DNA of 64,000 bases from Bacteroidota bacterium (GCA_028873925.1 JAPPNA010000037.1:518-64517), one strand, 5' to 3'; positions 13,618 to 30,821 are shown, numbered from the stretch's first letter. Made by a program: numbers and translations. The notes: generated by a model from the letters alone, not told the origin.

Positions 13618-13636
13618 GGCCTCAGAGGGACCGATA

Positions 13637-13750
13637 GGGGGCTTATTAGGGACCTTGGGGGTCGTATTAAGGGCCGTTGGGGGTCTTATTGGGGGTCTTA
13701 TTGGGGTCTTATTGGGGTCTTATTGGGGTCTTATTGGGGTCTTATTAGGG
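13637..13750. repeat. tandem repeat array, unit GGGG(G)TCTTATT (11-12 bp): six clean copies at 13679-13746 plus degenerate copies upstream
   Basis: Read directly from the sequence. GGGGGTCTTATT occurs twice, then GGGGTCTTATT four times. These are preceded by GGGGGCTTATTA and GGGGGTCGTATTAA variants. The array lies between the convergent 3' ends of the AlbA_2 gene and the RND permease. Confidence 0.9.
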
Positions 13751-13836
13751 ATCCATTGCGTCTCTCCGCATGACCGGCGGTCCACACAAACCGCCAAACT
13801 GCAGGTCCGGTCTGCACCGCAGAACCCGCGCCCGAT

Positions 13837-16800
13837 TCAACGGCTTCGTACCACAATGGCATACAGAACCGGAACAATAAACAGCGTGAGCACGGTTGCA
13901 CTGGTCAGCCCGCCCACAATGGCAATCGCCAGCGGAGTGCGCAACTCGGCCCCCTGACCAAATCCCAGCGCGAGCGGCATCAGACCCAAAACCGTAGTGA
14001 TAGTCGTCATCAGAATGGGCCGCACACGGTCCCGACCCGCAGCCAGAATGGCTTCACGAATCGGCATACCGGCAGCACGACGCTGGTTGATAAAGTCCGT
14101 CTTGATGATGGCGTCATTGACCACAATGCCCACCAGAACCACACATCCCATCAGGCTCATAAGGTTGATAGTCTGACCGGTGATCCCAAGAACAAAAGAC
14201 ACTCCGGCCGCCGCCAGCGGCACCGCGACCAGAATAATCAGCGGCTGCACCAGATTCTCAAACTGAGCGGCCAGTATTAGATAAACCAGCAGCAGACTTA
14301 ATGCCAGACTCAGCGCCACCCCTAACAGGCTCTGCTGAAAGACCTCCGCCGCACCCCCGATGCGGCTGCGCACGGTAATAGGCAGTGTGCTCTCCATCAC
14401 ACTGTTTACCGCACTGAGCGCAGTCCTCAGGTCGTGGCCCTCTGCGACATCCGCCGTCAGACGAATCACCGATGCCTGCTCAACCCGCACCAAAGCCGCT
14501 GGCAGAGACACCGAGTTCGCAGTCACAAAGGCGGAGATCGGCATCAGCCCATCGCGCGCGGGGATCAGCTCAGCCAACAGTCGCTCAATTGAATCAATGT
14601 GTCGGGACCGCAGCACAATGGGGACTTCCTCATTGACTGTTTTCAGGGTGGTAGCCTCGCTTCCGCGTGCTCCGGCCTCCAGATAGGAGGTCAGCACTTG
14701 GGCGCTTACCCCGTAACGATTCATAACATCCCGTTTGAAAGCCAGTTGATAGGTGGGCACCGAGGCCGCATCGGTCCGACGCACATTGGCCAGTTCGGAG
14801 CGCTGTACCAGCAGCCGCAGCACATTATCTACCACCGACTCGGCATCCCTCCTTTCCTCGCTAACCAGGTCAATCAGCAGATCCGCATCGCCCGTAGTAA
14901 GGAGCTGTTCCAGTTGGGTCTCCACGCGCTGAACCTTGATTTCAACATCATCCGGCAACTCCAGCGCCTGCACCTGCGGCAGCACATTGTCCGCGTTCTG
15001 CCCGGGGGCTAGCAGCAGGGTAATGTCACCCTCGTACGGCGGACGCGGATCCAGGTCCAGCCGGGCCTGATCCCGCTCCCCTAGGTCCGCAAGCACACGA
15101 TCTGCCCAGCCCCGAGCTTTTGCCTGCGCTTCAACCTCGGCCGCACGCGCGGCCACCAGCGGCAGGTCCGCATCCGTAGGCAGCGTTATGCGCGCCTCCA
15201 CACGACCCTGCTCCGTCTTCGGAATCACCTCACGGGGCAGATTAGCAATCAGCAGCCCGGCTCCCATCAGCACCAGCGCACAACACATCATGACCGCCCA
15301 GCGATGATCCAGACTCCACGCAAGCGCCCGCTCATAACCGGCCAACAGCCGGCCGCCCCGCGGAGAACCGACCGTTCGGCACCTGCCGGACCTGCCTTCG
15401 CGGGACACGATCAAGGGCACCGCGGTCAGTGCGACAAGCAGGGAGGCCATCAGCGAACAGACTACCGCCAGGGACTGGTCGCGGAATAAACGGCCTGCCA
15501 GACCTTCCACCAGCGTGATCGGCAGGAATACCGCGATGGTCGTCAGCGTGCTGGCCGTAATGGCCCCGGCCACTTCAGAAGCTCCGTTCCGCGCAGCTTC
15601 CAGTGGACGCTGTCCCTGCTCCCGTAATCGAGCAATGTTCTCAATGACCACAATGGCATTGTCAACGAGCATGCCTGCTCCCAAGGCAAGACCGCTGAGA
15701 GAAATCAGGTTGAAGGTCACATCGAACGGTTCAAACAGAACCAATGTAACGCCTAAGGAAAGCGGCACGGCAATGGCTGCCGCCAAGAGTGCCCGCAAGC
15801 GTCGGAGAAAGGCAAACAGCACCAGAATTGCGAGCAGACCGCCCAACATAACGGCCTGCGTAACGCCGCCAATGGCTGCCTTGATGAACTCGCTTTCGTC
15901 AACAATCACATCCAGATTGATGCGTTCGTGCTCCTCTTCAAGTTCGGCCAGCACCGTTCGGATTTCCTCCACCGCCCGAACGACATTCGCATCCGCCCTT
16001 CGCTCAATAAGCAGCAGAAGTGTTTCGACCCCATCCAGCCGCACCAGCCCGCGCCGATCCGCCACCGCATCATGCACCTGAGCCACATCCCGCAGCCGAA
16101 TGGGGGTCGGACTTCTACTGGGAATGACGGTTTCCGCAATGTCGGCTGTGTTCTTGAATTCACCGCTTACTTCCACCGGATACCGAAACGGGCCGCGCCG
16201 GATCACACCGCCCTGCAGGGAAGTGTTTGACCCATCCAGCTGACGGGCGATATCGCCCAGGCTTATGCCATAAGCCAGCAATTGATCCGGGTCCGTTTCT
16301 ATCTCAATCCGACGCTCAAATCCGCCCGTTACCTGCACACGGGCGACATCCGTGAGCTGCTCCAGGCGGCGGGCGATGATGTCCCGCCCCATGCGTTTGA
16401 GCTCCATCAGATCTTCCGGTCGACCCGCATCCTGCTCACCGGAATATCGGAGCGCAATCACCATAATGGGGCGTTCACCCGGGTCCAGGTGCAGTACGGC
16501 CGGTCGGGTGGCTTCTCTGGGGAAGGCATCTCCCAGGCGGTCCATATTCTCACGCACATCCAGCAGGGCCAGGTTCAGGTTGGCGTTCCAGCCGAACTGC
16601 ATGTGGACCAGGCTGCCGCCGAGAAGAGTGCGCGAGGTGACACGCGTCAGGCCGGCAGTGCCGGCTACAGCCTGTTCAACCCGCTCCGTTACGGCCCGCT
16701 CAACCCTGTCCGGAGGTACGTCCGGATAGCTGGTCCACACGACCAGACCCGGATACCGCAGATCGGGCAGCAGAGAAACAGGCAGCCGCACATAGGCTAC

Positions 16801-16881
16801 CGCGGCCAGCACCATCAGCAGGATAAAGAACGCCGCCACGGATACCGGCCGGCTCAGGCACACTGAAATAAGCGTTTTCAT
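13837..16881 (-). CDS. efflux RND transporter permease (AcrB/CzcA superfamily)
   Basis: 1014 aa with twelve-TM RND architecture. Conserved segments include LVDNAIVVIENI and VGIVVNDAII. Confidence 0.95.
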   Translation of the reverse strand: MKTLISVCLSRPVSVAAFFILLMVLAAVAYVRLPVSLLPDLRYPGLVVWTSYPDVPPDRVERAVTERVEQAVAGTAGLTRVTSRTLLGGSLVHMQFGWNANLNLALLDVRENMDRLGDAFPREATRPAVLHLDPGERPIMVIALRYSGEQDAGRPEDLMELKRMGRDIIARRLEQLTDVARVQVTGGFERRIEIETDPDQLLAYGISLGDIARQLDGSNTSLQGGVIRRGPFRYPVEVSGEFKNTADIAETVIPSRSPTPIRLRDVAQVHDAVADRRGLVRLDGVETLLLLIERRADANVVRAVEEIRTVLAELEEEHERINLDVIVDESEFIKAAIGGVTQAVMLGGLLAILVLFAFLRRLRALLAAAIAVPLSLGVTLVLFEPFDVTFNLISLSGLALGAGMLVDNAIVVIENIARLREQGQRPLEAARNGASEVAGAITASTLTTIAVFLPITLVEGLAGRLFRDQSLAVVCSLMASLLVALTAVPLIVSREGRSGRCRTVGSPRGGRLLAGYERALAWSLDHRWAVMMCCALVLMGAGLLIANLPREVIPKTEQGRVEARITLPTDADLPLVAARAAEVEAQAKARGWADRVLADLGERDQARLDLDPRPPYEGDITLLLAPGQNADNVLPQVQALELPDDVEIKVQRVETQLEQLLTTGDADLLIDLVSEERRDAESVVDNVLRLLVQRSELANVRRTDAASVPTYQLAFKRDVMNRYGVSAQVLTSYLEAGARGSEATTLKTVNEEVPIVLRSRHIDSIERLLAELIPARDGLMPISAFVTANSVSLPAALVRVEQASVIRLTADVAEGHDLRTALSAVNSVMESTLPITVRSRIGGAAEVFQQSLLGVALSLALSLLLVYLILAAQFENLVQPLIILVAVPLAAAGVSFVLGITGQTINLMSLMGCVVLVGIVVNDAIIKTDFINQRRAAGMPIREAILAAGRDRVRPILMTTITTVLGLMPLALGFGQGAELRTPLAIAIVGGLTSATVLTLFIVPVLYAIVVRSR

Positions 16882-16901
16882 GACCGCTTATGCCTCAACA
16901 T

Positions 16902-18191
16902 CTACTGCAATCCCAGTTCCAACACGTCGGTTACTTCAACGGGTACATCGTGGGCCAGGGCATAATTGCCAATCACCACGATGGTATCACCGGGCTCCAC
17001 GATGCTGGGGGGATCACCGCGAATAATCTCCACAAAGTCACCCGACCGCTCACCCACATCCACATACATCCAATAGGAACGATTATTCTTGACGAGAAAA
17101 ACTACATCACGCCCCTGCCGGACAATTACCGCGTCCTTGGGAACTACCATCCGGTCCTGCAGACGCTGCATTTCCAATGCTACATCCGCGTACATTCCGG
17201 AAACCAACTGTCCACCCGGATTTGCAAGAGCTACGGTGACGCGCCCTACGCCGGACCCCTCTTCCACTCTCGGATTAACCGCATGCACCCGGCCCTGGAG
17301 CACTTCATCACTGAAGCTGGGCACCACCACATTGGCAGTTGCCCCCTGGCTGATATGAACGAGGTCCGCTTCCAGCACATCAACCGCTACCTTCATGCGC
17401 CTGTCATCCAACAGGGTCAGCAGCTTGGTTCCTGCGCCTACATTCTGCCCTTCCTCCAAGTACCTCCCCGTTGAACGGTCCATAAGGTCGGCAATACGTC
17501 CGCTAAACGGAGCCACAACCTGCGTGCGCTCCAACTGCAGCCTTGCCTGTTCCACCTGCTGTTCGCCCTGTGTGAGATTTGTGGTTACCGCTAGTACGGC
17601 CTCGCGCTGATTGCCAGCCAGAAGATCAAAGGCTTCAAACCGCCGCCGAGCAGCCGCGAGTTCGGAGGGTAGAAGATTGCCAGCCTCAAGAGCAGCCTGC
17701 GCCTCTCTGTACTGCCAGCGCGCTTCCGAAAGCGCCGTAGTATCCGCCTCTGAAAATTCACCGCTGCCGCTGAGTCCGACGGCGTGATCCGCTCTCGCCT
17801 GCAGCAGTGTGGCTTCCGCTTCAGCCAGTCGGATACGCTGCTCTCGATCGTCCAGACGCACCAGCACCTGACCGGCCGTTACCCACTGTCCCTCCTCAAT
17901 CGGGCGTTCCACAATACGACCACCGGTTTCAGCACTGATATCCGCCCTGCGCCAGGGAGCCAGACTGCCGGTGGCCTCCGCACGCAGCGGAAATTCCGCC
18001 CGTTCCAATACCTGGACCTGCACCGGCGAACGCGCCGCTTCGGGCTCTTCGGGCACCTCGCGTTCGTCCTTTGCTGACTCGCCGGTGATCACCGGCCACA
18101 GTCCATACAGGACCAACCCGCCAATGGCCATCGCCAAAATCACGCCAAATATCTGCCAAGGTCTGATTCTTCGCGGTTTGTTACGGGACAT
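16902..18191 (-). CDS. efflux RND transporter periplasmic adaptor (MFP/HlyD family)
   Basis: 429 aa with an N-terminal TM anchor, a coiled-coil hairpin region and beta-barrel segments. It lies immediately upstream of the RND permease in the same orientation. Confidence 0.9.
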   Translation of the reverse strand: MSRNKPRRIRPWQIFGVILAMAIGGLVLYGLWPVITGESAKDEREVPEEPEAARSPVQVQVLERAEFPLRAEATGSLAPWRRADISAETGGRIVERPIEEGQWVTAGQVLVRLDDREQRIRLAEAEATLLQARADHAVGLSGSGEFSEADTTALSEARWQYREAQAALEAGNLLPSELAAARRRFEAFDLLAGNQREAVLAVTTNLTQGEQQVEQARLQLERTQVVAPFSGRIADLMDRSTGRYLEEGQNVGAGTKLLTLLDDRRMKVAVDVLEADLVHISQGATANVVVPSFSDEVLQGRVHAVNPRVEEGSGVGRVTVALANPGGQLVSGMYADVALEMQRLQDRMVVPKDAVIVRQGRDVVFLVKNNRSYWMYVDVGERSGDFVEIIRGDPPSIVEPGDTIVVIGNYALAHDVPVEVTDVLELGLQ

Positions 18192-18364
18192 CAGCGCAGC
18201 CAGGTTGTGGGGAAGTGGAACCGAGTTGAATCAAAGAGTGTGGCGCAAATTCTGTTCCAATATCGCAGCGTTCATTGCGTGAATTCTGAATGGAACCGCC
18301 TCTTCTGGAGAACAGTTTGGGATCATGGCGGCTAAATTGCTATGTATTCCAGACGAATCGCATC

Positions 18365-21300
18365 ATGTTCAGCAAAGGGGCGGGACTCCTGAAGCGGCCG
18401 ATTGCCGTTATGTCGTGGTGCGTAGCCGTGGTACTGGCGGGTATCTGGGCGGCGGTGGACATCCCGATAGAGTACTCGCCCAATACGGAACTTCCCCGCG
18501 TCAGTATCGGGGCCAACTGGGCAGGCGCATCTCCACAGCAGGTGGAGCGCTATGTGACTGCACCTATTGAGCGCGAGATTCAGAATGTGCCGGGCATAGT
18601 CGAAATCAACAGCATTTCGTCGGAAAACAGCTCGCATGTTCAGATCCAGGTGGATGATGCGGTAGACTTGAGCAACTTCGCCACGCAGGTGGGGGATCGC
18701 ATTACCCTGCTGCGAGATCAGTTGCCGGAGGGCGTAACACCGCGGCTGACCAAGCAGATTCCCGAGGCGTTTCGGGATGTGCAGGGGTTCATGACCTTAA
18801 GTCTGCTGGGGCCCTACAGCCCGGACGAATTGCGAAAACTGGCGGACGAAAGCCTCAAGCCCGAGTTTGAGAGCCTGCCGGGAATTGACTTGGTTGAAGT
18901 GACCGGCGGCACCAAGCGGGAACTGCTCATTACGCTGCTGCCAGCCCGCCTTGACGCTTACGGTATAGACTACAGCGAGGTCCGCAGCCAGATTTCCCAG
19001 GCGTTGCGGGATCATGTATTCGGCCGCATGAATGCCCGCGGACGCGGTCATCTGCTGATCAGCCATCCCGAATTGGACGTGGCACGCCTGGGAGCCATAA
19101 TCGTGAGCAGAAGCCGGCCCGGAGAGCTGCCGGTACGGCTCGATCAGGTGGCTACCCTTGAATTGGGCCCGGCACCCCGCACGAGTATCCGCCGGATTGA
19201 CGGACTCAATACGGTGGCTTTGGATCTGGAACGCACCCGCGGCTCACACATGATTGACGTAGCCCGGGCCGTTCATGACCGCGTTGAGGAAATCCGGGAG
19301 TCACTTCCTGAAGGCGGCCGCCTGATTGTGGCAATGGATCGCACCGAGAATGTGCGTGAACTGCTCAGTGATCTGGCTTTGCGTGGTGGGATCGGACTCA
19401 TCCTGGTCATGCTGGTACTGCTCTTTATGCTCAAGAGCGTACGCGCGACCGCGATTGTACTGTTCAGTGTGGCGGTAGCCCTGGCACCCGCATTGGCTCT
19501 TTTCCGACTGTTTGATCTGTCGCTGAATGTGATCACGCTGGCCGGACTGGTGCTGGTTTTCGGGCTGCTGGTGGATAACAGCGTAGTTGTTGTTGAACAG
19601 CTTCAGCTGCAACAGCGGAAACTGGCGGCACGCGGCCTCAAGGGACTTCAGCTTCAGATCGCGCGGACCAAAGCCGCTTTGGAGGCGGTCTGGCTGCCGC
19701 TGTTGGGCGGAACGCTTAGTACGATGGCTGTCATGCTCCCGCTGGTATATCTCAGCGGTGATTTACGCGACCTCTTTCTTCCATTCGGAATCCTGGTGAG
19801 CCTCACGCTGCTGATATCCCTGGCCAGCGCGGTGGTATTTGTGCCGGTAGTGGTGCGTTTTCTACCGCCTGCAGCTGAAACACTGGAGCGTCGCTGGCTG
19901 CGCCGGGCCGTAGCGGCACCTTACCGGGTGGCAGCCCGCTTTCCGAAGCTTACCGTTGCCCTGATGCTGCTGATTCTGGGGGTGCCGATATGGAAACTGC
20001 CACAGCGGATAGAAGAGCCTAGGCGGGGCTGGTCGAATCCGGTCAAGGGGCGATTTGCCAATGTGTACAATTTTTCCCTGGGCTCGCCACCTGTCCAAGC
20101 CGCCCGTGTGTGGATTGACCCGCTCACCGGGGGGGTCCTACGTCCGTTTTTCCGTAACGCATCCTTTTACAAACCCTGGTCGTACCCCGAACGGACCAGT
20201 ATCGGCGTGAGGCTTGGCTTTGCGAAGGGCAATACCATTGAGCGCAGTGACTCATTGATTTCCACCTTTGAAGACATGGCGCTGGCTTCCGAATCCGTGT
20301 ACCGCACCGATGTAAGGATCACTGAATCCAGTGCAAGTCTGCAGATTGAATTCAAGGAAGGTTCTCTTGAGCAGCCGGAGCCGTATCTGCTGCAGATGGG
20401 CCTAGTAGGAAGGGCCATTCTGCTGGGGGGAATGTCGGTATCCGTTGGGGAGATCATCCCTCAAACCGGCTACTACAGCGGCGGGGGCGGAGGCTTCAGC
20501 GGATCGCGCGTACGCATGTACGGCCCCAACTACGAAGAGCTGGATGCATTGGCCCACCGCTTCAGCCGGTTCGTAAAGCGGAAAAGCCGGCGTGTCATGG
20601 GTGTGGATCTGAACGGCTCGCGCCAGTCGTGGATCCGCAACCAGGCCCGTCAGGTCCTGCGGTTCCGCTGGGATGGGGACGCGACCGCACGCGCCGGTGC
20701 CGCAGCAAATTTCATCACCTACCGACTCCAGCCGTACTTTGAGACCACAAGGCCATTCTGGCACGCCGATATTGCGGGAGATTCCCGGGTCCCGATCCGG
20801 ATAATCGTCAGCGGTGCGACAGAAATTGATATCGATCGCATCACACAGCGTCCGCTCGTGGTCCCGGACAGCTCCATACTGCGGCTCGCAGGACTGGCGG
20901 ATTATGAAATCGTCGAAATGCCCGCCAACATCGAACGCGAAAACCAGCAGTACGTCCGGCATGTCAGTGTTGACTACCGGGGCCCCTTTGATATGAGGCG
21001 CAGATTCATGGAGGAGTCTGTTGAGTCATTCCCTGTACCCCCCGGCTATCGGCTGGAATACGGGTCCAACTGGTTCTTTGACGACGAAACCAAACGAGCT
21101 TTCAGCTGGGTATTCCTGGCTACAATCATACTTGTTTTCCTGGTTACCGCTGCGATTTTTGAATCCTGGTGCCTGCCGCTGGTCGTGATGCTTAGCGTAC
21201 CGCTCGCAGCTGTGGGCGTTTGCGTCGGTTTTCTGTCCACCGGGGCAAGTTTTGTTGAGGGGGCCTTTATAGGGACCGTGCTATTGGTGGGCATTGCCGT

Positions 21301-21604
21301 TAATGACAGTATTCTACTGACGGATCGGTTTCGACAGCTGCGCGTGCTTCGGCCGTACGGCAGGTCATCCATCCTGGCACGCATGGCTGTCCGAGAGCGG
21401 CTGCGCCCGATGTGGACCACTACACTGACGAGTGCGGCCGCCATGCTGCCGCTGCTTGTATTTCCAGACGAAAGTGATTTCTGGACCGGTCTTGCGGTCA
21501 CTGTTACCGCTGGCCTGTTTGCTTCTACACTTCTGGCACCATTCGCGTCGGTTGGTCTGCTTTCGCTCTTCAAACCCAAGGCCGTACCTGAGCGCGTGCA
21601 GTAA
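18365..21604 (+). CDS. efflux RND transporter permease, second divergent copy
   Basis: AcrB-like N-terminus (RPIAVMSWCVAVVLAG...IEYSPNTELPRVSI), plus LLVDNSVVVVEQ and VGIAVNDSILL. The start is set at the internal ATG at 18365. Confidence 0.9.
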   Translation: MFSKGAGLLKRPIAVMSWCVAVVLAGIWAAVDIPIEYSPNTELPRVSIGANWAGASPQQVERYVTAPIEREIQNVPGIVEINSISSENSSHVQIQVDDAVDLSNFATQVGDRITLLRDQLPEGVTPRLTKQIPEAFRDVQGFMTLSLLGPYSPDELRKLADESLKPEFESLPGIDLVEVTGGTKRELLITLLPARLDAYGIDYSEVRSQISQALRDHVFGRMNARGRGHLLISHPELDVARLGAIIVSRSRPGELPVRLDQVATLELGPAPRTSIRRIDGLNTVALDLERTRGSHMIDVARAVHDRVEEIRESLPEGGRLIVAMDRTENVRELLSDLALRGGIGLILVMLVLLFMLKSVRATAIVLFSVAVALAPALALFRLFDLSLNVITLAGLVLVFGLLVDNSVVVVEQLQLQQRKLAARGLKGLQLQIARTKAALEAVWLPLLGGTLSTMAVMLPLVYLSGDLRDLFLPFGILVSLTLLISLASAVVFVPVVVRFLPPAAETLERRWLRRAVAAPYRVAARFPKLTVALMLLILGVPIWKLPQRIEEPRRGWSNPVKGRFANVYNFSLGSPPVQAARVWIDPLTGGVLRPFFRNASFYKPWSYPERTSIGVRLGFAKGNTIERSDSLISTFEDMALASESVYRTDVRITESSASLQIEFKEGSLEQPEPYLLQMGLVGRAILLGGMSVSVGEIIPQTGYYSGGGGGFSGSRVRMYGPNYEELDALAHRFSRFVKRKSRRVMGVDLNGSRQSWIRNQARQVLRFRWDGDATARAGAAANFITYRLQPYFETTRPFWHADIAGDSRVPIRIIVSGATEIDIDRITQRPLVVPDSSILRLAGLADYEIVEMPANIERENQQYVRHVSVDYRGPFDMRRRFMEESVESFPVPPGYRLEYGSNWFFDDETKRAFSWVFLATIILVFLVTAAIFESWCLPLVVMLSVPLAAVGVCVGFLSTGASFVEGAFIGTVLLVGIAVNDSILLTDRFRQLRVLRPYGRSSILARMAVRERLRPMWTTTLTSAAAMLPLLVFPDESDFWTGLAVTVTAGLFASTLLAPFASVGLLSLFKPKAVPERVQ

Positions 21605-21715
21605 CCATCACCTGCGACGGGGCCTGTGTCTGATCGGAGTGTACGGATTCTCCGCCTGGTTGGGCCGTGCAGCCTGATGTGCCACCAAGAATCGTATTGA
21701 ACGGACCAGCGCTGA

Positions 21716-22216
21716 CTACAAATCGGCAATGAATTCGGACAATTCCTCAACCGTTTCAAAAAAGTGATCCGGCCGCGATGCTCGCAGTGCTGCTTTGTCA
21801 GGTGCTGCCCATGCGGCAGCGATTGCCCCAATGCCTGCTCTTCTTGCGGCCTCGGTATCGGCCGGAAGATCACCAATATGATAAGACTCCGCAGGTGTCG
21901 CCTGTAACTTACGCAGAGCCACCAGGAGGCACTTCGGATCCGGTTTTCGCCTTCGATAGTCATGCCATCCTACGATGGCATCTATAGGCCAATTTTCCTT
22001 CCGGGCAAAGAGAGTCGGCGCAAAACCGGGACTCTGAGTCACAATCGCCAATTTATGTCCGCGAGCTTTTGATAAGGTCAACAACTCACTGATCCCATCA
22101 ACGGGGCGGAGCTGAGCCAGCTCTCGCCTGTAAGTCGCCCAGTCTCTTGCCGTACGCAACCCGGAAATTCGTACAGTATCCACTAGTACTTGGTCAAAGT
22201 CGAACAGCAACGTCAT
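21716..22216 (-). CDS. HAD-superfamily phosphatase (subfamily IA-like)
   Basis: All four HAD motifs are readable. These are motif I FDFDQVLVDT (DxD), motif II IVTQS, motif III the K in RRRKPDP, and motif IV GDLPADTEAA. Its ATG shares one base with the stop of the upstream DprA-like gene (TGATG on the coding strand). Confidence 0.8.
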   Translation of the reverse strand: MTLLFDFDQVLVDTVRISGLRTARDWATYRRELAQLRPVDGISELLTLSKARGHKLAIVTQSPGFAPTLFARKENWPIDAIVGWHDYRRRKPDPKCLLVALRKLQATPAESYHIGDLPADTEAARRAGIGAIAAAWAAPDKAALRASRPDHFFETVEELSEFIADL

Positions 22217-23199
22217 CAGCTGCCCGAATGCCCGTCAAAGAGTGAAAATTGTGATCCTTCCAAGGCCGCCCCATCTCCAGATGATGGAATCGGATTCAGG
22301 ATTTTCTGCAGATCACTGGGCTTGGCGAGCTCGTACGCGCGTCCATTATTTAGGAGTGCCCAGTTTCCCTGTACCTCTGGATAGTTTGCTTCGGCTCGGT
22401 TGGGACGTAGACAGGCGATGGGCCTGCCTTGCACTTCTGCAAAACCCACGGTGTGCATAGTTCCTCCTTTAGTCCCGGTTTGGATCACAATGATCAGGTC
22501 GGACAGAGCGCTTTGAAGATGATCGCGGGCAATAAAGGACCATCTGCCAGCTTTCGTACCCGGAGGGTATTCGCTTACCCAGCACCCGCCGCAATCCAGA
22601 ATTGTATTGGCGAGATATTGATTGTCACGCGGATAAATGTAGTCAAAACCATGAGCAAGGATGGCAATGGCGGTACCGCCTTCTTCTGTGCACCCTTCGT
22701 GCGCCTGCTGATCACACCCATAGGCTAAGCCGCTTACCACCGAAATACCCTCTTGGGCCGCATAACCGCCGAGTCTCCGGGCCGAATCCATGCCATGCTC
22801 GGTCGGGTTTCGCGTCCCGACTATCGCCACAGTCCTGCCTGGATGGCGAAGCGCCTCTATGTCGCCCTTGACGTAGATCACCGGGGGTCTTTCATCCTTG
22901 ATTCTGCCATTAGGCCCTGTCCTGCGCAACACATCCAGTTGCCGCGGATATTGGCCATCGCTGTTGGTGGATGCGATGGGGCGTATTCCCAGTTGGCGGC
23001 ATTGCACAATCGTCCGGCCCGCTTCCATCCAAGCAGTAGCCGCCGCCTCTTTTGATTTCCCCATTTCCCCGCACGCTACGGAAAAGAAAGCGCTTTCCGA
23101 ATCCCCGCACTCTTGAGCGTACTTGAGCGTCTTCTTCTGACCGATGCCGGGTAAGCGCATCATGGCGATCGGCGGCTGCGCCTCCGTGAAATGGTCCAT
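22216..23199 (-). CDS. divergent DprA/Smf-family (DNA-processing protein A-like, Rossmann/SLOG-type fold) protein
   Basis: LPGIGQKKTLKY (HhH/SAM-like N-domain), VAIVGTRNPTEHG, VVSGLAYGCDQQAHEG, GTAIAILAHGFDYIYPRDN, and FIARDHLQSALS in place of the canonical FPxRNRIISGLS. There is no C-terminal winged-helix extension. Confidence 0.8.
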   Translation of the reverse strand: MDHFTEAQPPIAMMRLPGIGQKKTLKYAQECGDSESAFFSVACGEMGKSKEAAATAWMEAGRTIVQCRQLGIRPIASTNSDGQYPRQLDVLRRTGPNGRIKDERPPVIYVKGDIEALRHPGRTVAIVGTRNPTEHGMDSARRLGGYAAQEGISVVSGLAYGCDQQAHEGCTEEGGTAIAILAHGFDYIYPRDNQYLANTILDCGGCWVSEYPPGTKAGRWSFIARDHLQSALSDLIIVIQTGTKGGTMHTVGFAEVQGRPIACLRPNRAEANYPEVQGNWALLNNGRAYELAKPSDLQKILNPIPSSGDGAALEGSQFSLFDGHSGS

Positions 23200-23203
23200 T
23201 TGT

Positions 23204-24121
23204 TCAGGAATTGTCCCAGATACGCCCTAATGTACTTGGTATTCGGCTGTTGGCCTTGTCAAAGGGTACGCACAGCCATTCCGGGCGCATATGCCTTCCG
23301 AGGGCAAAGCCATAGATAATGATGTCCGGGTTAGTACGCCGGATCGCAGCAGCTATAGCGGCCATGGTGGCAACTCTCGTGATGATGTCGTCCACCATAA
23401 TTACGGCCTCGTAGAATAATCTACCCGCCCGATAGTCCGCGGTACTTAGCACGGAGTCCCTAGCCTGGGCAGATGGCTGGTGGTGCAGCTTCTGGTGCGG
23501 GTTCTTCTTGAGGCATTTGATGTCCAGATTTGCTCCGGCTCCTTTTGCGATAGCCCTAGCCAGCCGGGAATTGCTGGATGAACGTTCAGCACGAGTCTCG
23601 GAAGAACGCAGCGCAGGCACAATAACCGTTCTGGATGTGTCAGTCCCGAACCACTGCAGCAATGACGGAGCTGCTATCTCTATCGTACTGGCGGCTTTCT
23701 CAACTGCGCCGCTGTGTTCACACTTAAACGCGTTAACCCTAACTGTCCACGGATCACCTTGGGCTGTCCCAATTCTGACCGCCAACGCACACATGCGCTC
23801 CAGATCTAGGTTTATTACGCTGGCAGATGGCTCGACCGGAAGCCACCAATTTGTCCCTAAAGATTCCTGTAGTTGGCTGGGATCCCACTCTTGGATCAAT
23901 TCTCCTTTTGACCTGGCGGGGGCCTTTTTTCTGGTCCGTGTAGCCGCGGGGCCGACCGAAGAGCGAGCTGGCAATCCGGGGGTGTTGCCGGTTATCCGGT
24001 CTGCCTTTTTCCTCAGCTCCGGCTTGGGCTGGCCGCCCATCAACATCCTGACTATGGCCCAGACCACTATCACCAAGAAAATCACAATGCTCATCTTAGC
24101 CCATGTTGCTGGTGAATCCAC
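23204..24121 (-). CDS. membrane-anchored ComF-like phosphoribosyltransferase-domain protein
   Basis: An N-terminal TM helix (MSIVIFLVIVVWAIVRMLM) is followed by a basic disordered linker. The C-terminal PRTase core VIMVDDIITRVATMAAIAAAIR matches the ComFC/PRT PRPP-loop pattern hhhhDDhxT(T/S)GxT, but with RVA in place of (T/S)Gx. The stop lies 4 nt before the DprA-like start. Confidence 0.7.
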   Translation of the reverse strand: MDSPATWAKMSIVIFLVIVVWAIVRMLMGGQPKPELRKKADRITGNTPGLPARSSVGPAATRTRKKAPARSKGELIQEWDPSQLQESLGTNWWLPVEPSASVINLDLERMCALAVRIGTAQGDPWTVRVNAFKCEHSGAVEKAASTIEIAAPSLLQWFGTDTSRTVIVPALRSSETRAERSSSNSRLARAIAKGAGANLDIKCLKKNPHQKLHHQPSAQARDSVLSTADYRAGRLFYEAVIMVDDIITRVATMAAIAAAIRRTNPDIIIYGFALGRHMRPEWLCVPFDKANSRIPSTLGRIWDNS

Positions 24122-24183
24122 TCCGAAAGTGACGCTTCGCTCAACGGCTCCTCTCCATTTAGAACGCTGATAATGACTGGGGC

Positions 24184-24194
24184 GGAGTCACTCC
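24184..24194. promoter_or_regulatory. perfect 5-1-5 palindrome GGAGTCACTCC about 65 bp upstream of the PRTase start (candidate operator)
   Basis: Read directly from the sequence. A regulatory function is purely inferred from its position in the leader of the three-gene operon. Confidence 0.2.
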
Positions 24195-24697
24195 CATTCA
24201 TGGTTTCAGATGCGCTCCCTTCGCTGCCGGGCAAGCGGAGCACGCTTGTCCGGCCTCCAAGCAGGCTCTAGAGGGCAATTTGAACATGGCATGAACGGCC
24301 GAATTGCTACGGTTGCAATAACATCGGCTTGTATGTGGCCACCGCAAGGCTGAGCTATGTGCCAGCCAACTCTAACCGGAGGCAGGACTGTCTGTTTTGT
24401 GAGGCACTCACCCATCTGATATCAAATATAGGTCGCAAGATAGCGCAAAACGGGCATGAAAACACGTTCCATTCAGTTGCGCAGGGTCCCACTGAATAGA
24501 TGTCAGCCCGCCACTTAGTCTGAGGGGTGCCAATTTATCACGCCACAAACAATGCGGCCCGCAGCTTCGGGATATGCAACTAGGGCTGGCACCTCGGGTT
24601 TTGCGACAAACCAATGCCCGACTGCCAAGCATAGCTGCATGTGCAGCCCGATTACCGATTGGACTCCATCTGCTTTGGATTGGCTCTGACCGCCGGA

Positions 24698-25603
24698 TCA
24701 GAACGGAAGCGGCGTTCCTTCGGTTCGGGTTTTCTCCAAGTATATGTCCCTCAGTCGGCAGGTGATCGGGCCCGCTATTCCCTCTCCGATCACCCGCCCG
24801 TCCACCTCCAGAACAGGAGAAAGCTCGCCCATAGTTCCGGTGGTAAAAACCTCGTCCGCACTGTGCACCTCGGCAATGGAAATATTGCGCTCAACGGCTA
24901 CAAACTTCGCCGCGCGGGCGAGCTCCAGCACTTTTGCCCGCGTGATCCCCGGCAGGCAGCTGTCTGCGTTCGGAGTCAGTACCTGGCCCCGCTTAACAAT
25001 GAACACATTGGTCGCGTTGGTTTCCGACACAAATCCGTGCACATCGAGCATGATGGCATCGTCCACTCCGGCCAGATTGGCCTGGATCTTCGCCAGAATG
25101 TTGTTGATCAGGTTATTGTGATGGATCTTGGAGTCCAGACACTGGGGCGTATTGCGGCGCACCGAAGAGGTAATCAGTTTGATGCCCCCTGTCGCATAAA
25201 CCGGTTTCTTCCACTCAGCCAGGACGATAAGCGTGGGCCCGAACATGTTCAGTCGGGGATCCATGCCAGAGGTGGTCTTCTCGCCGCGCGTGAGCGTCAG
25301 GCGTACATGCGTGTCGTCCCGCATACCATTGGCCTTCAACGTCTCAAACAGCGCTTCGGTGATTACCGCCCGGGTGGGTATCTGCGTAAATCCCATTGCA
25401 CGGGCCGAATCGGCGAGCCGATCCAGATGCGCCTCAAGCTGGAAAACCCGTCCGTCATACACACGGATTCCCTCCCAAACCGCATCACCCCCCTGAACGA
25501 CGCTATCAAACACCGACACACCGGCTTCCGAGCGGGGAAAAAGCCGATCCTTGACGTATACGAGGATCGAATCGTTGCGGGCATCCGGCAGACTGATATG
25601 CAT
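24698..25603 (-). CDS. class IV (fold type IV) PLP aminotransferase, branched-chain/D-amino-acid aminotransferase family
   Basis: 301 aa with typical class IV segments EGIRVYDGRVF, LDVHGFVSETNATNVFIVK and LPGITR. Confidence 0.9.
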   Translation of the reverse strand: MHISLPDARNDSILVYVKDRLFPRSEAGVSVFDSVVQGGDAVWEGIRVYDGRVFQLEAHLDRLADSARAMGFTQIPTRAVITEALFETLKANGMRDDTHVRLTLTRGEKTTSGMDPRLNMFGPTLIVLAEWKKPVYATGGIKLITSSVRRNTPQCLDSKIHHNNLINNILAKIQANLAGVDDAIMLDVHGFVSETNATNVFIVKRGQVLTPNADSCLPGITRAKVLELARAAKFVAVERNISIAEVHSADEVFTTGTMGELSPVLEVDGRVIGEGIAGPITCRLRDIYLEKTRTEGTPLPF

Positions 25604-25625
25604 GAGGCTTATTCGGCAGCAGTTT

Positions 25626-26339
25626 TCAGCACTTCAGCGCATGCTCGTACAGGTACGCATAGTGAGGTCTGCATTCCTCCAGAAGCGGCCTTAGGAAGGC
25701 GGGAAAGGGAGATGTCTTAGGTCGGTAAGGACCGAACCCGGTCGTCGTCCGAATTACATGGTACCAGTGAGGCGCCCAGATGCCATCCTCCGGCCGACCC
25801 CCGGCGGGCCAGCTCAGCATCGCGGCATCGAACTCCAGACCCACATGCGTACACAACTGCCGCAGCACATGCTCAGGATTCAAGAGCAGTTCCTTAGCAT
25901 CAAGCACGCACGGCGACCGCCCCCGCGCCTTGAGGTAGTCGAAAATCTCCGTCTGACGCGCCAAGGCCGTATCCGCCAGTTGCGGCTTCGGCACCTGATT
26001 GATCAGCGAAGGCAGCATCTGCTCCGGATCGCGGATCAGCATCACATTGGTCATCTTGCCGAGAAAGTCCCACGACAAACACAGAAAATGATGGGCCATA
26101 TTCTTGACGAACAGTACGGGCCTATCCTGCGCGGCCAGCAGCACATCGCGCACCACACGCTCGCCGTTACTGTCCATGGCCGCCAGAATTTCTTTGCGGC
26201 CGGGATGCTGCGCCCCGGTAAGGTGCAGATAATGCGCATACAAGGGCTCGTCGGTAACACGCGTGTCCCCGCGCTGGGCAAACGCGTACATAAGCGCCGT
26301 AGACACATTGCGCGGCCCGCTCCAGAGATTGATCTTCAT
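25626..26339 (-). CDS. sulfotransferase-like / P-loop-fold family protein
   Basis: 237 aa with the N-terminus MKINLWSGPRNVSTALMYAFAQRGDTRVTDEPLY. I recognise this as the family annotated as sulfotransferase-like. It is homologous to the N-terminal half of plant BCAT-like proteins. This rests on recollection and has not been searched. Confidence 0.55.
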   Translation of the reverse strand: MKINLWSGPRNVSTALMYAFAQRGDTRVTDEPLYAHYLHLTGAQHPGRKEILAAMDSNGERVVRDVLLAAQDRPVLFVKNMAHHFLCLSWDFLGKMTNVMLIRDPEQMLPSLINQVPKPQLADTALARQTEIFDYLKARGRSPCVLDAKELLLNPEHVLRQLCTHVGLEFDAAMLSWPAGGRPEDGIWAPHWYHVIRTTTGFGPYRPKTSPFPAFLRPLLEECRPHYAYLYEHALKC

Positions 26340-26429
26340 CCGTCCGGTACAGTAGATGACTTAAACCGCATCACTATCTATCGGATCAACAGCGGTCATC
26401 ATGCGCGGGGTCTGATGGTCCGGGGGACG

Positions 26430-27209
26430 CTATCCGCCGTGCATGCCCCGCAGCAGCCGCCCCAAGGCCTCCAATCCAATCCCGTCAATATCGTTCCGCA
26501 CACGCAGGGTGCACCATAAATCCAACACCAGCATCTGTACAGCATGTATCGGCACTGCAATCCAAAAGCTTCGGCAGCGCCAGACCAGGACACCCAGCGC
26601 CAGTCCGCCCACCATGGACAGCACAAGCTCCGGCAGCGGCTTGTGCACATGCAGCAATGCAAAGGGCACCGCCTGGATGAACAGGGCGTGCAGACCGAAG
26701 GTGTGCGCAGTCCCGAACAACACGAACCCGCGCCACAGATACTCCCAGCCCAGCCAGTACATGAGAAAGGCACCATGATACAATACGAACACGCGCCAGC
26801 TTAACGTCGCATCCCGCAGATGAGGATATGATGCCTGAAATTCCGCACTGTCCGACAGGAACCAGGTCCCGACAATCACCAGAGGTATGTACAAAGCGCA
26901 GATGATCAGTGCGAGCCGCCAGTCACCCAGGCCCAGGCCGACCGCAGCCGGACGCTGCCGGAACACGACACACAGCACCAGCGCCGGCAGCAGGAAGCCC
27001 GTCACCCCCTGCACCGCAAACCACCATACCCAAGACAGCAGACCGCTGGCATCCGGTGCCACATGCGTCAGAAAAAAACCGCGCCCGCCGAGCCGAAAAT
27101 GCACCAATACGAAAACCCCGTACAGTATCAGTACGGTGGCCGTCTGCGGGTTCAGCCTGGCACAACCGCGCAGGAAACCCCGCCATTCCGACTGCAGACG
27201 GACCCTCAT
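26430..27209 (-). CDS. CPBP family intramembrane glutamic endopeptidase (CAAX protease/Abi fold)
   Basis: Polytopic membrane protein with a CPBP motif 1-like GWEYLWRGFV and a motif 2/3-like FALLH. Confidence 0.8.
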   Translation of the reverse strand: MRVRLQSEWRGFLRGCARLNPQTATVLILYGVFVLVHFRLGGRGFFLTHVAPDASGLLSWVWWFAVQGVTGFLLPALVLCVVFRQRPAAVGLGLGDWRLALIICALYIPLVIVGTWFLSDSAEFQASYPHLRDATLSWRVFVLYHGAFLMYWLGWEYLWRGFVLFGTAHTFGLHALFIQAVPFALLHVHKPLPELVLSMVGGLALGVLVWRCRSFWIAVPIHAVQMLVLDLWCTLRVRNDIDGIGLEALGRLLRGMHGG

Positions 27210-27214
27210 CCTGC

Positions 27215-29473
27215 TCAGCGGTCCGCACCCACATAACGCTCCATGAACTCCCAGATACGCAGCAGCCGGTCCATTCGCTGTTTCGGATTGCCGGACCGGG
27301 ACAGATCATGCCCCGCGTTCGGATAGCGGACATACTCAACGGGCCTGCCCAGTGCCTTCAGGCTTTTGTACAGCACTTCACTCTGAATTACACCTGTCCT
27401 CAGATCATTGTCGGCATGCATGATCAGCAGGGGGGTCTGGATCAGATCCACGAATGTGATCGGTGAATTTGCCCGCAGCAGCGGCCCGCGCTCCCAGGGA
27501 AAGCCCCCGAAATGGTTGGGCACCAGCCGCCAGGCATTCCCTTCGCCAAAGAAGGTCTCCAGATCATATACGCCCCGCTGCGCCACCGCCGCCTTGAAAC
27601 GATGGTCCTGCCCCACGATCCAGGCGGTCAGATACCCGGCGTAGGACCCGCCGGTGACTACCTGCCGATCCGCGTCCACCCATCGCTGCCGCTGTACAAC
27701 CTCACCGGCCGCCGCCAGCACATCACCGGCCGGACCGACCCCCCAATCCTCATAATTGGCCCTGCGCCAAGCTGTCCCGTAGCCACCGGACCCTCGCGGA
27801 TTGCTGTAGACAATGCCGTAGCCCTTGGAGGCAAAAAACTGAAATTCATGCCACATGGTGGCTTCCCCCGGCCCCCACATACTGGCAGGGCCCCCGTGAA
27901 TGGCCACCATCAGCGGATACGTCCGGCCCGGCACCTGGAATGTGGGGCGGATGATCCAGTATGGAATCTCAAGGGTGTCGACCCGCAGCGTGTGCGATGT
28001 CGGAACGCTGACGGCTTTACTGTTAAGCCACGCGGAGTTGTGGGTACTCAGCTGTTGCGGACTTTGAAAGTCCATCGTGGAGCTGTAGAGCTCGTAGGGA
28101 TTGCGCGTGTCGGTAACCACCATGTACGCACTGGCCGATGTGATCTGATAATCGCGGATTCCCTGTTCAACATCGGTCATCTGTCGGACTGGGAAGTCTT
28201 GACGGACCAGTTCTTCGCGGGAGAACACATCCCGGGCGGGTGCCGCCAGGCTGTCGGCAGCCAACGTATCTGCCAATGCGTCCTCTGGACCGGATGGACG
28301 CTGAACCGCTTCGGTTACCTCCACCCTGAACAGCGGAAAGCCCCCTTCGGAAGGTGCCGTGAAATACAAGAACCAGCCATCATGGGACCATTGCACACTG
28401 CTAGCGCTGCGGTCAAAATCCAGGGTAATCATGGCCGGTGCGCTGCGGCCATCCAAGGCAAACAGTCCGATCTCGGTCTGCGCATAGCCGGGGTCCTCAA
28501 GATCACGGGCCAGAAAGGCAATCTGATTACCATCGGTCGACAACACCGGTGAACTCAGCCGATACCCCTCAACGTCCAGCAGCCGCTGCCTCTTGCCATC
28601 CGGCACATCGACCAAAAACAGTTCCCTGTCCTGTATGCGGTCAGGATGCAGCGTGGATTCCGGATATCCGCTGACGATTAACTGTCGGCTGTCGGGCAGC
28701 CAAGTAGCATCGCCATAGCTGTAGTGCCCTCCGGTGACCCTATGTACCTCCGGTCCATCCGGCGCTTCCATGTCAGCCACAAAAAAATGGCGGTACCGGG
28801 GTTCGGGTGCCAGTGCCAGCTCCCCCTGGAGGTTGAGCCTGGTAAACAGGCGCGGATTGGCATCTTCCGCGTTGGCGTGCAGCCAGGCACGCACGGCCTC
28901 CAGTGACCCATCCGGATCCGGATCTGCCCGCGTATGATCGTCCGACCCGCGCCCCGGCCGCTCGTCCGACCAGACAGGCGGCTGTCCGGTCAGCTCCCGC
29001 AATTCCTGGCCGGTCAGAGAAGAGGAGAATAGGATGTAGCGACCATCAGGAGACCAGATCGGCTGTGACGGAGAATGTTCATAGTTCAGAATTTCCCGGG
29101 CCTCTCCACCATAAACTGCGATCTCAAACAGTCGGGCGCTGTCATCCAGGGTGCGCACAAACGTAATGTGCTCTCCATCAGGATTCCAGGTCGGCGAAGT
29201 AGCCCCGCCCTCTCCGTATGTCAGCTGCCAGGGGACCTCCCGGCCCGACACCGGGGCAATCCATATCTGGGAGCGGTATTTGTAGGCCTTATCCGGGTCA
29301 GGCACTATGGACCGTACCGCATACGCCACATAGCGGCCGTCCGGAGACACCGCAATGCTCCCCAGCTGCTTGATCTTCAACAGATCCCCGGCCGTTACCG
29401 GCTCCCGTCCAGACTGGGCGTGCACGGCGGTCACCGACAACAGCACAGCCAGTGAGACTATCAGTCGCTTCAT
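27215..29473 (-). CDS. S9 family serine peptidase (prolyl oligopeptidase/acylaminoacyl-peptidase type) with an N-terminal beta-propeller
   Basis: Signal peptide MKRLIVSLAVLLSVTAVHAQ, using the internal ATG at 29473. TolB/WD40-like repeats (SPDGRY..., WSPDGRYILF). The catalytic serine sits in GGSYAGYL, followed by a downstream D...H (GHDL). Confidence 0.9.
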   Translation of the reverse strand: MKRLIVSLAVLLSVTAVHAQSGREPVTAGDLLKIKQLGSIAVSPDGRYVAYAVRSIVPDPDKAYKYRSQIWIAPVSGREVPWQLTYGEGGATSPTWNPDGEHITFVRTLDDSARLFEIAVYGGEAREILNYEHSPSQPIWSPDGRYILFSSSLTGQELRELTGQPPVWSDERPGRGSDDHTRADPDPDGSLEAVRAWLHANAEDANPRLFTRLNLQGELALAPEPRYRHFFVADMEAPDGPEVHRVTGGHYSYGDATWLPDSRQLIVSGYPESTLHPDRIQDRELFLVDVPDGKRQRLLDVEGYRLSSPVLSTDGNQIAFLARDLEDPGYAQTEIGLFALDGRSAPAMITLDFDRSASSVQWSHDGWFLYFTAPSEGGFPLFRVEVTEAVQRPSGPEDALADTLAADSLAAPARDVFSREELVRQDFPVRQMTDVEQGIRDYQITSASAYMVVTDTRNPYELYSSTMDFQSPQQLSTHNSAWLNSKAVSVPTSHTLRVDTLEIPYWIIRPTFQVPGRTYPLMVAIHGGPASMWGPGEATMWHEFQFFASKGYGIVYSNPRGSGGYGTAWRRANYEDWGVGPAGDVLAAAGEVVQRQRWVDADRQVVTGGSYAGYLTAWIVGQDHRFKAAVAQRGVYDLETFFGEGNAWRLVPNHFGGFPWERGPLLRANSPITFVDLIQTPLLIMHADNDLRTGVIQSEVLYKSLKALGRPVEYVRYPNAGHDLSRSGNPKQRMDRLLRIWEFMERYVGADR

Positions 29474-29489
29474 ATAATTCTCCAGTGAT

Positions 29490-30467: not shown

Positions 30468-30821
30468 TATGCAATTGTATGTTCCAGACGCTCTAAGTTA
30501 GGCAGCTGCGGGCAATTGTTTTGCGGTTGCCCGGCCTGCCGCGGAGGGCAGCAGGGCAATGCACAACGGTATGGGATGTTACGCCTTCAGTTTCCGAAGA
30601 GAACCCAGCCACGGGCCCAAACGTGGTGTTAGCAGTAAGCGGGCATGCCGGATTGCCTGGCGTGCGCCGATGGCGAAACAGGTCCGCCATTACGGAATGG
30701 GCACCGGTGCAAGCCAATCGGACCGCGGGGACCCATTGCGGCAGGGACAGATTTGGCGCGACCAGTCTTCTGCAAGTGTACCGCGCAATCCCGGCTTGAG
30801 CAGCGGAATCACGCTCGCCGG

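Follow-up and report, generated by a model that had tools for sequence, protein, structure and literature searches.

A probable three-gene, split-architecture member of the Shosta (ShosTA) family with a predicted membrane-anchored phosphoribosyltransferase in a Bacteroidota genome

We analyzed a 64,000-nucleotide stretch of DNA from a Bacteroidota bacterium (GCA_028873925.1, JAPPNA010000037.1:518-64517; the whole stretch is referred to as the window), in which 3 packed genes on the minus strand encode a ComF-like phosphoribosyltransferase (PRTase; gene 1), a DprA-fold protein (gene 2), and a phosphatase of the HAD family (gene 3). This operon likely belongs, as a three-gene member with a split architecture, to the Shosta (ShosTA) family of toxin-antitoxin and anti-phage systems; it adds detail to a system that is already known and does not represent a system of a new kind. 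ShosTA, whose role in defence has been validated, has been described in E. coli, also under the name DprA-PRTase from P2 prophage hotspots, and its components are available as structures 8ZVA, 8ZVB, 8ZVD, and 9VZO (PMC11961720, PMC12961424, PMC9122126). The E. coli ShosT protein (424 amino acids) consists of a hydrolase domain that resembles the HAD-family pyrophosphatase BT2127 (residues 1–164) and a PRTase domain (residues 165–424) (PMC11961720, PMC12961424). The E. coli system and the window share a DprA-fold ShosA, a PRTase with a DD pair, and a HAD-fold module of approximately 165 residues. However, in E. coli shosA is followed by a fused HAD::PRTase gene, whereas in the window the PRTase, ShosA, and HAD are separate genes in this order, with shosA in the middle, and the PRTase of the window clade has a membrane anchor in addition. 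A first-pass annotation, made from the sequence of the window, had proposed kinship of the locus with the anti-phage pair of a DprA-like protein and a PRTase, and this proposal is borne out by the matches to the PADLOC ShosA and ShosT models and by ShosA being the best match in the PDB, as described below.

Judged by its sequence, gene 2 is a clear ShosA. The full DprA fold and the diverged FIARDHLQ motif noted in the first-pass annotation were both confirmed (Pfam DNA_processg_A, 4e-52), and the protein matched the PADLOC ShosA model PDLC03961 with an E-value of 2.7e-62 (208.8 bits). Its best matches in the PDB were the ShosA structures 9vzo and 8zva (6e-25), which ranked ahead of every canonical DprA, and it is 36% identical to E. 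coli ShosA over 161 residues. Gene 2 scored below the NCBIfam dprA equivalog cut-off (TIGR00732, 164.1 versus 191.15 bits) and below that of PRK10736 (103 versus 495). E. coli ShosA binds both single-stranded DNA (ssDNA) and RecA, and mutation of its residues R139 or R234 abolishes antitoxin activity, while R261 is dispensable. The 2 required arginines correspond to R130 and R225 of gene 2, and the dispensable one is a Gly in this protein.

For a comparison of the other 2 proteins with ShosT, the E. coli system whose structure has been solved by crystallography was located in a hotspot of a P2-like prophage (locus L066, shosA at 3662–4645 followed by shosT at 4647–5921), 4 more E. coli-type loci were collected from plasmids, and alignments of each half of ShosT were built from plasmid loci. 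The homology with ShosT became clear only with these alignments: single-sequence hhalign comparisons with E. coli ShosT were weak (probabilities of 2.8% and 30%), and ShosT was not among the best 60 matches listed when the family profiles of the HAD (alignment A1) and the PRTase (alignment A2) were compared with the PDB. With the alignments of the halves, the stand-alone HAD family matched the ShosT N-terminal domains with a probability of 94.8% (E 5.1e-8, 142 columns), from residues 1–165 of gene 3 to residues 2–160 of ShosT, and the gene 1 family matched the ShosT PRTase halves with a probability of 83.7% (E 8e-6, 111 columns). The Pfam models matched by gene 3 were also matched, in an identical register, by the N-terminal domain of ShosT. 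Among the phosphate ligands published for ShosT (PMC11961720), N53, K54, and R56 follow the Thr of HAD motif II (T52), and K92 is the Lys of motif III, which aligns with K91 of gene 3. These alignments argue that gene 3 is the N-terminal module of ShosT, encoded separately and with the HAD catalytic motifs intact, and that gene 1 is distantly homologous to the PRTase half. The coupled HAD had been regarded in the first-pass annotation as an undescribed addition. It is not a new addition because it is homologous over its whole length to the N-terminal domain of ShosT, and E. coli ShosT already has an N-terminal HAD-fold pyrophosphatase domain (PMC11961720). What is new about the HAD is that it forms a separate gene downstream of shosA and that its 4 motifs are intact; no N-terminal fusion of a HAD to the PRTase occurs in the window. 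E. coli-type ShosT proteins no longer have the nucleophile of the DxD motif (FSIAD) or the first Asp of motif IV (GRSQED), whereas gene 3 and its family keep the DxD and both motif IV aspartates.

Gene 3 matched Pfam HAD_2 with an E-value of 1.2e-20 and carries the motif residues D6/D8, T60, K91, and D116/D120. In an alignment of 25 members of this tight family (164–192 residues; alignment A1), every member has D8, T60, K91, D116, and D120, and at least 90% have D6, in agreement with the earlier description of a HAD phosphatase with 4 intact motifs. The structure model (mean predicted local distance difference test score, pLDDT, of 93.6) shows a HAD Rossmannoid core with a much reduced cap that consists of 2 short helices, and the protein matched a capless HAD-IIIA model over its full length. 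Its fold matches were HAD-IA phosphatases, and only generic enzymes of this type were found among the best 50, ShosT not being singled out. A BT2127-type pyrophosphatase (3QU2) was among the best matches by fold and by sequence, and it was the BT2127 structure that served to assign pyrophosphatase activity to the N-terminal domain of ShosT (PMC11961720). BT2127 has a full C1 cap with approximately 60 extra residues in place of the 2 short helices of gene 3. Because its cap is reduced in this way, the active site of gene 3 is probably more open, which makes its substrate uncertain.

Gene 1 consists of an N-terminal helix, a linker of approximately 57 residues, and a core of approximately 220 residues. 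It gave no match to Pfam, and its sequence gave none to the PDB. The AlphaFold model of the core (pLDDT 86.6) has a type-I PRTase fold. The family is rare, with 207 relatives among 1.84 billion representative proteins in an exhaustive HMMER search; a word-index search with the PRTase alignment returned at least 13 proteins. Residues K122, H125, H129, R137, D160, D161, and T168 are invariant in the family (alignments A2 and A3), and these include the DD pair that in ShosT is essential for toxicity (PMC11961720). Translation of gene 1 probably starts at the ATG at 24094 (MSIVIF..., 296 amino acids) and not at the GTG at 24121: the ATG is favoured because the GTG is missing from L002, a contig almost identical to the window, and because relatives start 1 to 3 residues before the helix.

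The arrangement of the 3 genes is conserved. Look-ups from the HAD side and from the PRTase side each returned the order PRTase, DprA-like protein, and HAD, with proteins of approximately 217 to 236 amino acids or longer, 310 to 333 amino acids, and 165 to 176 amino acids, respectively, and with stop and start codons that often overlap. When 1 genome per species was scanned, 28 genomes contained a convincing relative of gene 1 (loci L015–L042), and the fetched loci were scanned with back-translated motifs, 2 for the HAD and 1 for the DprA-like protein. A HAD matching the HAD motifs was found immediately downstream and on the same strand in 23 of the 28 genomes. This number is an undercount because the Pfam-confirmed HADs of 2 further loci (L013 and L014) match neither motif. 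A PRTase/DprA-like pair without HAD occurs in L016 and on a small Hymenobacter plasmid. In a rearranged Rhodothermales locus (L003/L015) the order is PRTase, HAD, WD40::PRTase, and DprA-like, and a Bermanella plasmid carries DprA, HAD, and PRTase as 3 genes within the E. coli-type clade. With the recurring gene order, the fused HAD::PRTase of E. coli, and the Deinococcus fusion described below, these arrangements mark the HAD as integral to the system. The PRTase-ShosA-HAD triad spans at least 6 phyla and was found in Rhodothermales, Acidobacteriota, Longimicrobiales, Dehalococcoidia, Thermodesulfobacteriota, Arenicellales, many Alphaproteobacteria, and Gammaproteobacteria. It is present on plasmids (L032 and L064), and carriers include a conjugative plasmid of S. 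meliloti and a Neorhizobium plasmid; its neighbours in the relatives include IS21, IS5, and other transposases, a methylase/Vsr/DrmE/helicase cluster, an AAA_15/21 ATPase, and a helix-turn-helix (HTH) and M78 peptidase pair. The flanks differed in every genome examined (the window, L001/L034, L003, L004, L006, L008, L009, and L013), and those of a complete Rhodothermales genome with a 58%-identical system differ from the window as well; Rhodothermales is the likely order of the organism from which the window derives. The system is thus patchily distributed, without synteny, and found on plasmids and beside insertion sequences (IS); the window copy lies outside a recognisable defence island.

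A DprA-like antitoxin and a PRTase toxin are also found in PsyrTA/RqlHI, in which the PRTase is fused to a RecQ-like helicase. Gene 2 matched PADLOC PsyrA with an E-value of 1.4e-29 and gene 1 matched PsyrT with 8.9e-4, the latter over profile positions 597–681 of 689 only; gene 1 has no helicase domain. On the Deinococcus wulumuqiensis plasmid pDrdI (L063/L068, 256154–266515) we observed an operon that encodes 2 giant DEAD/DEAH helicases, a 391-residue coiled-coil protein, and a HAD::DprA-like fusion. The fusion protein (472 amino acids) is encoded downstream of a 1,414-residue helicase with a weak HAD-like match (Hydrolase_6, E 0.0014, below the Pfam cut-off) and a C-terminal PRTase domain; the first helicase, the one with these 2 features, also has an MrfA zinc-binding domain. 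From its domain content, this locus looks like a hybrid of, or bridge between, PsyrTA and ShosTA.

The comparisons demonstrate homologies, a gene architecture, and the conservation and mobility of that architecture, while toxicity, activity against phages, substrates, and the side on which the HAD acts are inferred. By analogy with the E. coli system, the operon could function as follows. Gene 1 would be a phosphoribosyl pyrophosphate (PRPP)-binding PRTase that its helix and its basic, disordered linker hold at the inner membrane, on the cytoplasmic side, and it would consume PRPP to modify an acceptor, perturbing nucleotide metabolism or pools and DNA replication. Gene 2 would bind ssDNA, engage RecA-dependent recombination and repair, and in this way offset the damage without binding the toxin, according to a type IV logic. 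Tight stop/start spacing should tie the synthesis of ShosA and the HAD to that of the toxin. Phage infection could then disable, remove, or titrate ShosA, which would unleash the toxin and lead to abortive infection, by death or growth arrest of the cell before the phage completes its cycle. Gene 3 would most likely handle the phosphate chemistry of the PRTase, either by hydrolysing pyrophosphate (PPi) and so pulling the reaction forward or by removing a 5′-phosphate from the product.

Several observations weigh against assigning the operon to ShosTA. The window PRTase is short and ComF-like and barely reaches the PADLOC ShosT model, which it matched in its PRTase part only (3.1e-8, 31.8 bits). 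Any two HAD families yield a significant profile match, and the hhalign score alone is therefore no proof of a specific sister relationship between gene 3 and the ShosT domain. The gene order of the window is the reverse of that in E. coli, where shosA precedes shosT. A scan of viral contigs found no relatives, and a PADLOC scan of the neighbours in the window detected no defence island, the sole match being a weak one of a Schlafen-type protein to pAgo. Moreover, the window copy may be attenuated, given a Val in its PRPP loop and a His in gene 2. The loop reads DDIITRVAT where the family consensus is DDxITRGxT, so that the Val, part of the RVA that had been noted as atypical in the first-pass annotation, occupies a position at which Gly is conserved in at least 90% of the family; the L001/L034 and S. 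meliloti pHRB800 copies have this Gly. It is not a read error because the sister contig L002 carries the Val too. At site P1, in the catalytic core of its PRTase, ShosT binds a sulfate through the backbone amides of residues D336, G337, and N338 (PMC12961424). Counting from the DD pair, G337 would correspond to the Val of the window, and site P1 would be the 5′-phosphate site of PRPP. The His of gene 2, His227, is found where relatives have an Arg (ARDRLQ). Two relatives have broken PRTase genes next to intact ShosA-like and HAD genes: in L002 the PRTase gene is interrupted by a 1-nt C insertion (L002 1300–1450, which corresponds to 23530–23680 in the window), and in L017 (5986–6653) it is split into open reading frames (ORFs) of 64 and 143 amino acids. 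This pattern fits the decay of a toxin in a toxin-antitoxin module and would speak for the assignment, although these may also be errors of metagenome assembly.

A further point on this side is the structure of gene 1, whose best match in the models is ComFC rather than ShosT: H. pylori ComFC (7p0h) was the best fold match of the core (E 3.9e-5, TMq 0.57), while the ShosT structures 8zvb and 8zvd ranked 45 and 46 by E-value, although their TM-scores were the next-highest (0.46 and 0.43). To our knowledge, ComFC is not a toxin. It associates with the membrane, binds ssDNA, and has DprA as an interaction partner, and its PRPP loop reads DDIITTGTTL (PMC9005727). The ComFC-DprA pair thus shares with the operon the best-matching fold, a DDIIT-type loop, a link to the membrane, and a DprA-fold partner, and genes 1 and 2 could be read as ordinary comFC and dprA competence genes next to a housekeeping phosphatase. 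Faint matches of gene 1 to comF and GntX, the full DprA fold of gene 2, and the lack of a further dprA in the 64 kb of the window would also agree with such a role, but we consider it barely credible. Gene 1 scored 17.2 bits against comF (TIGR00201), for which the cut-off is 233.55, and it lacks the N-terminal four-Cys zinc finger of ComFC: its 4 cysteines are scattered and form no CxxC pair, and the family alignment (A3) contains no invariant Cys. Gene 2 is below the dprA cut-off and resembles ShosA more than any DprA, and two DprA-like genes lie side by side on some replicons. Finally, competence genes would be expected to show core synteny, a test that had been defined beforehand, and what we found instead is a very rare triad that is mobile, plasmid-borne, IS-adjacent, and located at a different place in each genome. 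Altogether, the HMM cut-offs, the missing zinc finger, the rarity, the plasmids and IS elements, and the lack of synteny largely refute an assignment to housekeeping comFC and dprA.

The last point against the ShosTA assignment as formulated above concerns the side on which the HAD acts. Because it is adjacent and coupled to ShosA and is fused to a ShosA-like protein in Deinococcus, it may belong to the antitoxin side. It would then dephosphorylate, and so detoxify, something nucleotide-like made by the PRTase, or serve as a 3′-phosphatase on DNA ends that aids the repair by ShosA and RecA, and the system would consist of 1 toxin and 2 protective proteins. The stop codon of gene 2 and the start codon of gene 3 overlap by 1 nt (TGATG, base 22216), the HAD follows shosA in the 23 genomes mentioned above, and in Deinococcus the ShosA-like protein carries an intact HAD as a fusion, and the PRTase helicase has only the weak HAD-like match. 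Members of the gene 3 family match the PNK3P polynucleotide 3′-phosphatase model, and the full-length match of gene 3 to the capless HAD-IIIA model points in the same direction. In E. coli, the HAD that is fused to the toxin lacks the DxD nucleophile, and mutation of this hydrolase domain reduces toxicity only marginally (PMC11961720). On the other hand, in L003/L015 the HAD directly follows the PRTase gene, the Bermanella order DprA, HAD, and PRTase is the domain order of the fused ShosT, and the best fold matches of gene 3 are small-molecule HAD-IA enzymes that include the BT2127 pyrophosphatase. In addition, the published model for the homologous ShosT domain is that removal of PPi drives the PRTase reaction (PMC11961720). 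We regard a HAD on the antitoxin side as the less likely reading but as a serious alternative. The loss of the HAD nucleophile in the E. coli domain, together with the small effect of its mutation, puts in question the role of the N-terminal "pyrophosphatase" domain of ShosT itself.

It is rather improbable, in our view, that the triad forms a distinct three-component class, in which a ComFC-derived PRTase and a ShosA-type protein would be a defensive derivative of the hand-off of ssDNA from ComFC to DprA, and in which E. coli ShosT would have been secondarily fused and its HAD would have degenerated. The PRTase of such a class would sit at the membrane or on WD40 or other N-terminal modules, and the HAD would act as an "antidote enzyme" that detoxifies the product or repairs DNA ends. 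Independently of such a class, the pairing of the PRTase with a DprA-like protein may descend from the competence pair, since ComFC, the best structural match of gene 1, has the links to the membrane, ssDNA, and DprA described above.

We also considered whether the PRTase and the HAD could produce a nucleoside-type signal, as proposed for the tellurite-resistance (Ter) conflict systems, with the SLOG/DprA-fold protein sensing or processing this signal instead of DNA. This corresponds to the nucleotide-centred interpretation of the first-pass annotation. As in the window, a PRTase is coupled to a HAD phosphoesterase in Ter systems, and such pairs have been proposed as their signal-synthesis modules (PMC7824862). 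Gene 2 matched SLOG cluster 4 in Pfam, and in Thoeris ThsA nucleotide signals are reported to be bound by SLOG domains; besides, the acceptor substrate of ShosT is not established in published work. However, the scanned flanks of the operon contain no TerB, TerC, TerD, or TelA component and no obvious downstream effector; the partner in the window is a DprA-fold protein. ShosA binds ssDNA and RecA, the arginines needed for its antitoxin activity are conserved in gene 2, and the PRTase is itself the toxic component in E. coli. We consequently hold a signalling role to be very unlikely and retain the ShosTA reading, in which gene 2 would act on DNA.

The membrane anchor of gene 1 was analyzed next to its relatives. 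The helix IVIFLVIVVWAIVRMLMGG has a mean Kyte-Doolittle hydropathy of approximately 2.6 over 19 residues (counted by hand), and its hydropathy, the composition of the linker, and the fold match to 7p0h agree with the architecture given in the first-pass annotation, namely 1 N-terminal transmembrane helix, a basic linker, and a ComFC-type PRTase core. Comparable N-terminal helices are present in L001/L034, L008, P0040, P0042, P0045, P0046, and P0050, and in all of these except P0040 and P0042, whose N-termini are longer and possibly contain several helices, the helix is followed by a basic low-complexity linker. The character of the linker is conserved and its sequence is not (L001, L008, P0045, and P0050); in L002 the linker has an 8-residue insertion. 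The anchor thus appears to be real and conserved in a Rhodothermales-centred clade, while more distant relatives of approximately 220 residues lack it. PRPP is found in the cytoplasm. Because the positive charges are located C-terminally of the helix, the PRTase domain should face this compartment. A second PRTase copy in L003 (8591–10144; the system is also present in L015) carries an N-terminal WD40 beta-propeller of approximately 300 residues. Since this propeller takes the position of the anchor in one close relative and unrelated N-terminal regions do so in others, the N-terminus of the PRTase seems to be an exchangeable module. A literature search found no description of a membrane-anchored ShosT, in line with the earlier suggestion that the anchor is an undescribed feature. 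The anchor, WD40, and other N-terminal swaps suggest a layer of localisation or sensing that has not been described for Shosta.

The operon would represent a cross-phylum sister branch of ShosTA in which the HAD module is separate and has its full set of catalytic motifs, so that the 3 activities can be separated experimentally. This makes the role and side of the HAD and the product of the PRTase directly testable and offers a cleaner handle on the chemistry of ShosT. Shosta models built on two genes probably miss part of this branch, since its PRTase scores only approximately 32 bits and its HAD is not modelled.

The positions of the genes and of the elements within gene 1 are collected in Table 1. 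The coordinates and junctions of the 3 packed genes, with a 4-nt gap and the 1-nt TGATG overlap, were reproduced as first annotated. The difference in GC content that had been put forward as a sign of foreign origin, 48–50% in two 60-nt lines of the operon and approximately 70% in a line of metH, was overstated: the operon has 55.2–55.7% GC and the window as a whole approximately 59%, and 1-kb segments with an equally low GC content occur elsewhere in it. The GC content at third codon positions (GC3) of the operon is 0.50–0.60 against a typical 0.62–0.73. This composition is a mild dip and a weak argument for foreign origin.

Table 1. Positions of the operon genes and of the elements of gene 1 in the window.
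Feature	Position	Strand	Description or basis
Gene 1, membrane-anchored ComF-like PRTase, ShosT-like toxin candidate	23204..24121	−	ORF, 305 aa from GTG
Gene 2, ShosA-like (DprA-fold) ssDNA-binding antitoxin candidate	22216..23199	−	ORF, 327 aa
Gene 3, stand-alone minimal-cap HAD phosphatase	21716..22216	−	ORF, 166 aa
Spacer ACAA, 4 nt, from gene 1 stop to gene 2 start	23200..23203	−	
N-terminal transmembrane helix of gene 1, MSIVIFLVIVVWAIVRMLMGG	24032..24094	−	Sequence read directly
Linker between helix and PRTase core, basic, S/T/P/R-rich, probably disordered	23861..24031	−	Composition
PRTase core, beginning with the conserved WW(L)xP motif	23207..23860	−	Alignments A2/A3 and structure model
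PRPP loop VIMVDDIITRVATM, DD pair and Thr intact, Val for the near-invariant Gly	23363..23404	−	

Upstream of gene 1, approximately 575 nt are non-coding (24122–24697); the closest relative, L034, has only approximately 75 nt at this position. This non-coding region gave no match to Rfam, the operon scanned together with its leader showed no riboswitch, and a promoter and terminator scan that included the region upstream of gene 1 gave nothing above the shuffled expectation. The operon is flanked by RND efflux genes on one side and an aminotransferase gene on the other. The former encode 2 large RND transporters of the AcrB family and a membrane-fusion protein (13837–21604), and the second transporter gene is convergent with gene 3, with a spacer of 111 nt. 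Past the 2 RND genes and approximately 8 kb from the operon, a plus-strand gene (12136–13617) encodes a 493-residue Schlafen-type protein with AlbA_2 and HATPase_c_4 domains, which gave the weak PADLOC pAgo match (1.2e-9). The 10 flanking genes covered by the Pfam scan (12136–31745, that is, approximately 9.6 kb on one side of the operon and 7.6 kb on the other) encode RND pumps, the Schlafen-type protein, an aminotransferase, a sulfotransferase, and peptidases. No Ter genes were among them, and a Ter-type module was rejected.

Weak matches to the PRPP loop were observed in a further set of loci (L044–L062, for example L047, L050, L051, L053, and L056–L058), with a DprA motif approximately 900 nt upstream on the same strand. 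Their hosts are archaea represented by metagenome-assembled genomes (Woesearchaeota, Bathyarchaeota, Nitrososphaerales, and Nanoarchaeota), Acidobacteriota, and Planctomycetota. These matches suggest that pairs or fusions in the order DprA and then PRTase may occur in archaea. On plasmid p3 of Rhizobium leguminosarum (L067, 3174–6960) 2 DprA-like systems stand back to back: an E. coli-type shosA with a shosT of 414 amino acids and, on the opposite strand, a DprA-like gene followed by a gene for a hypothetical protein of 219 amino acids. On a plasmid of Piscirickettsia salmonis (L070, 1289–4406), an E. coli-type ShosTA adjoins an MqsR/MqsA toxin-antitoxin pair, ssb, and phage terminase genes, and its ShosT (418 amino acids) carries the NCBI name "HAD hydrolase-like protein".

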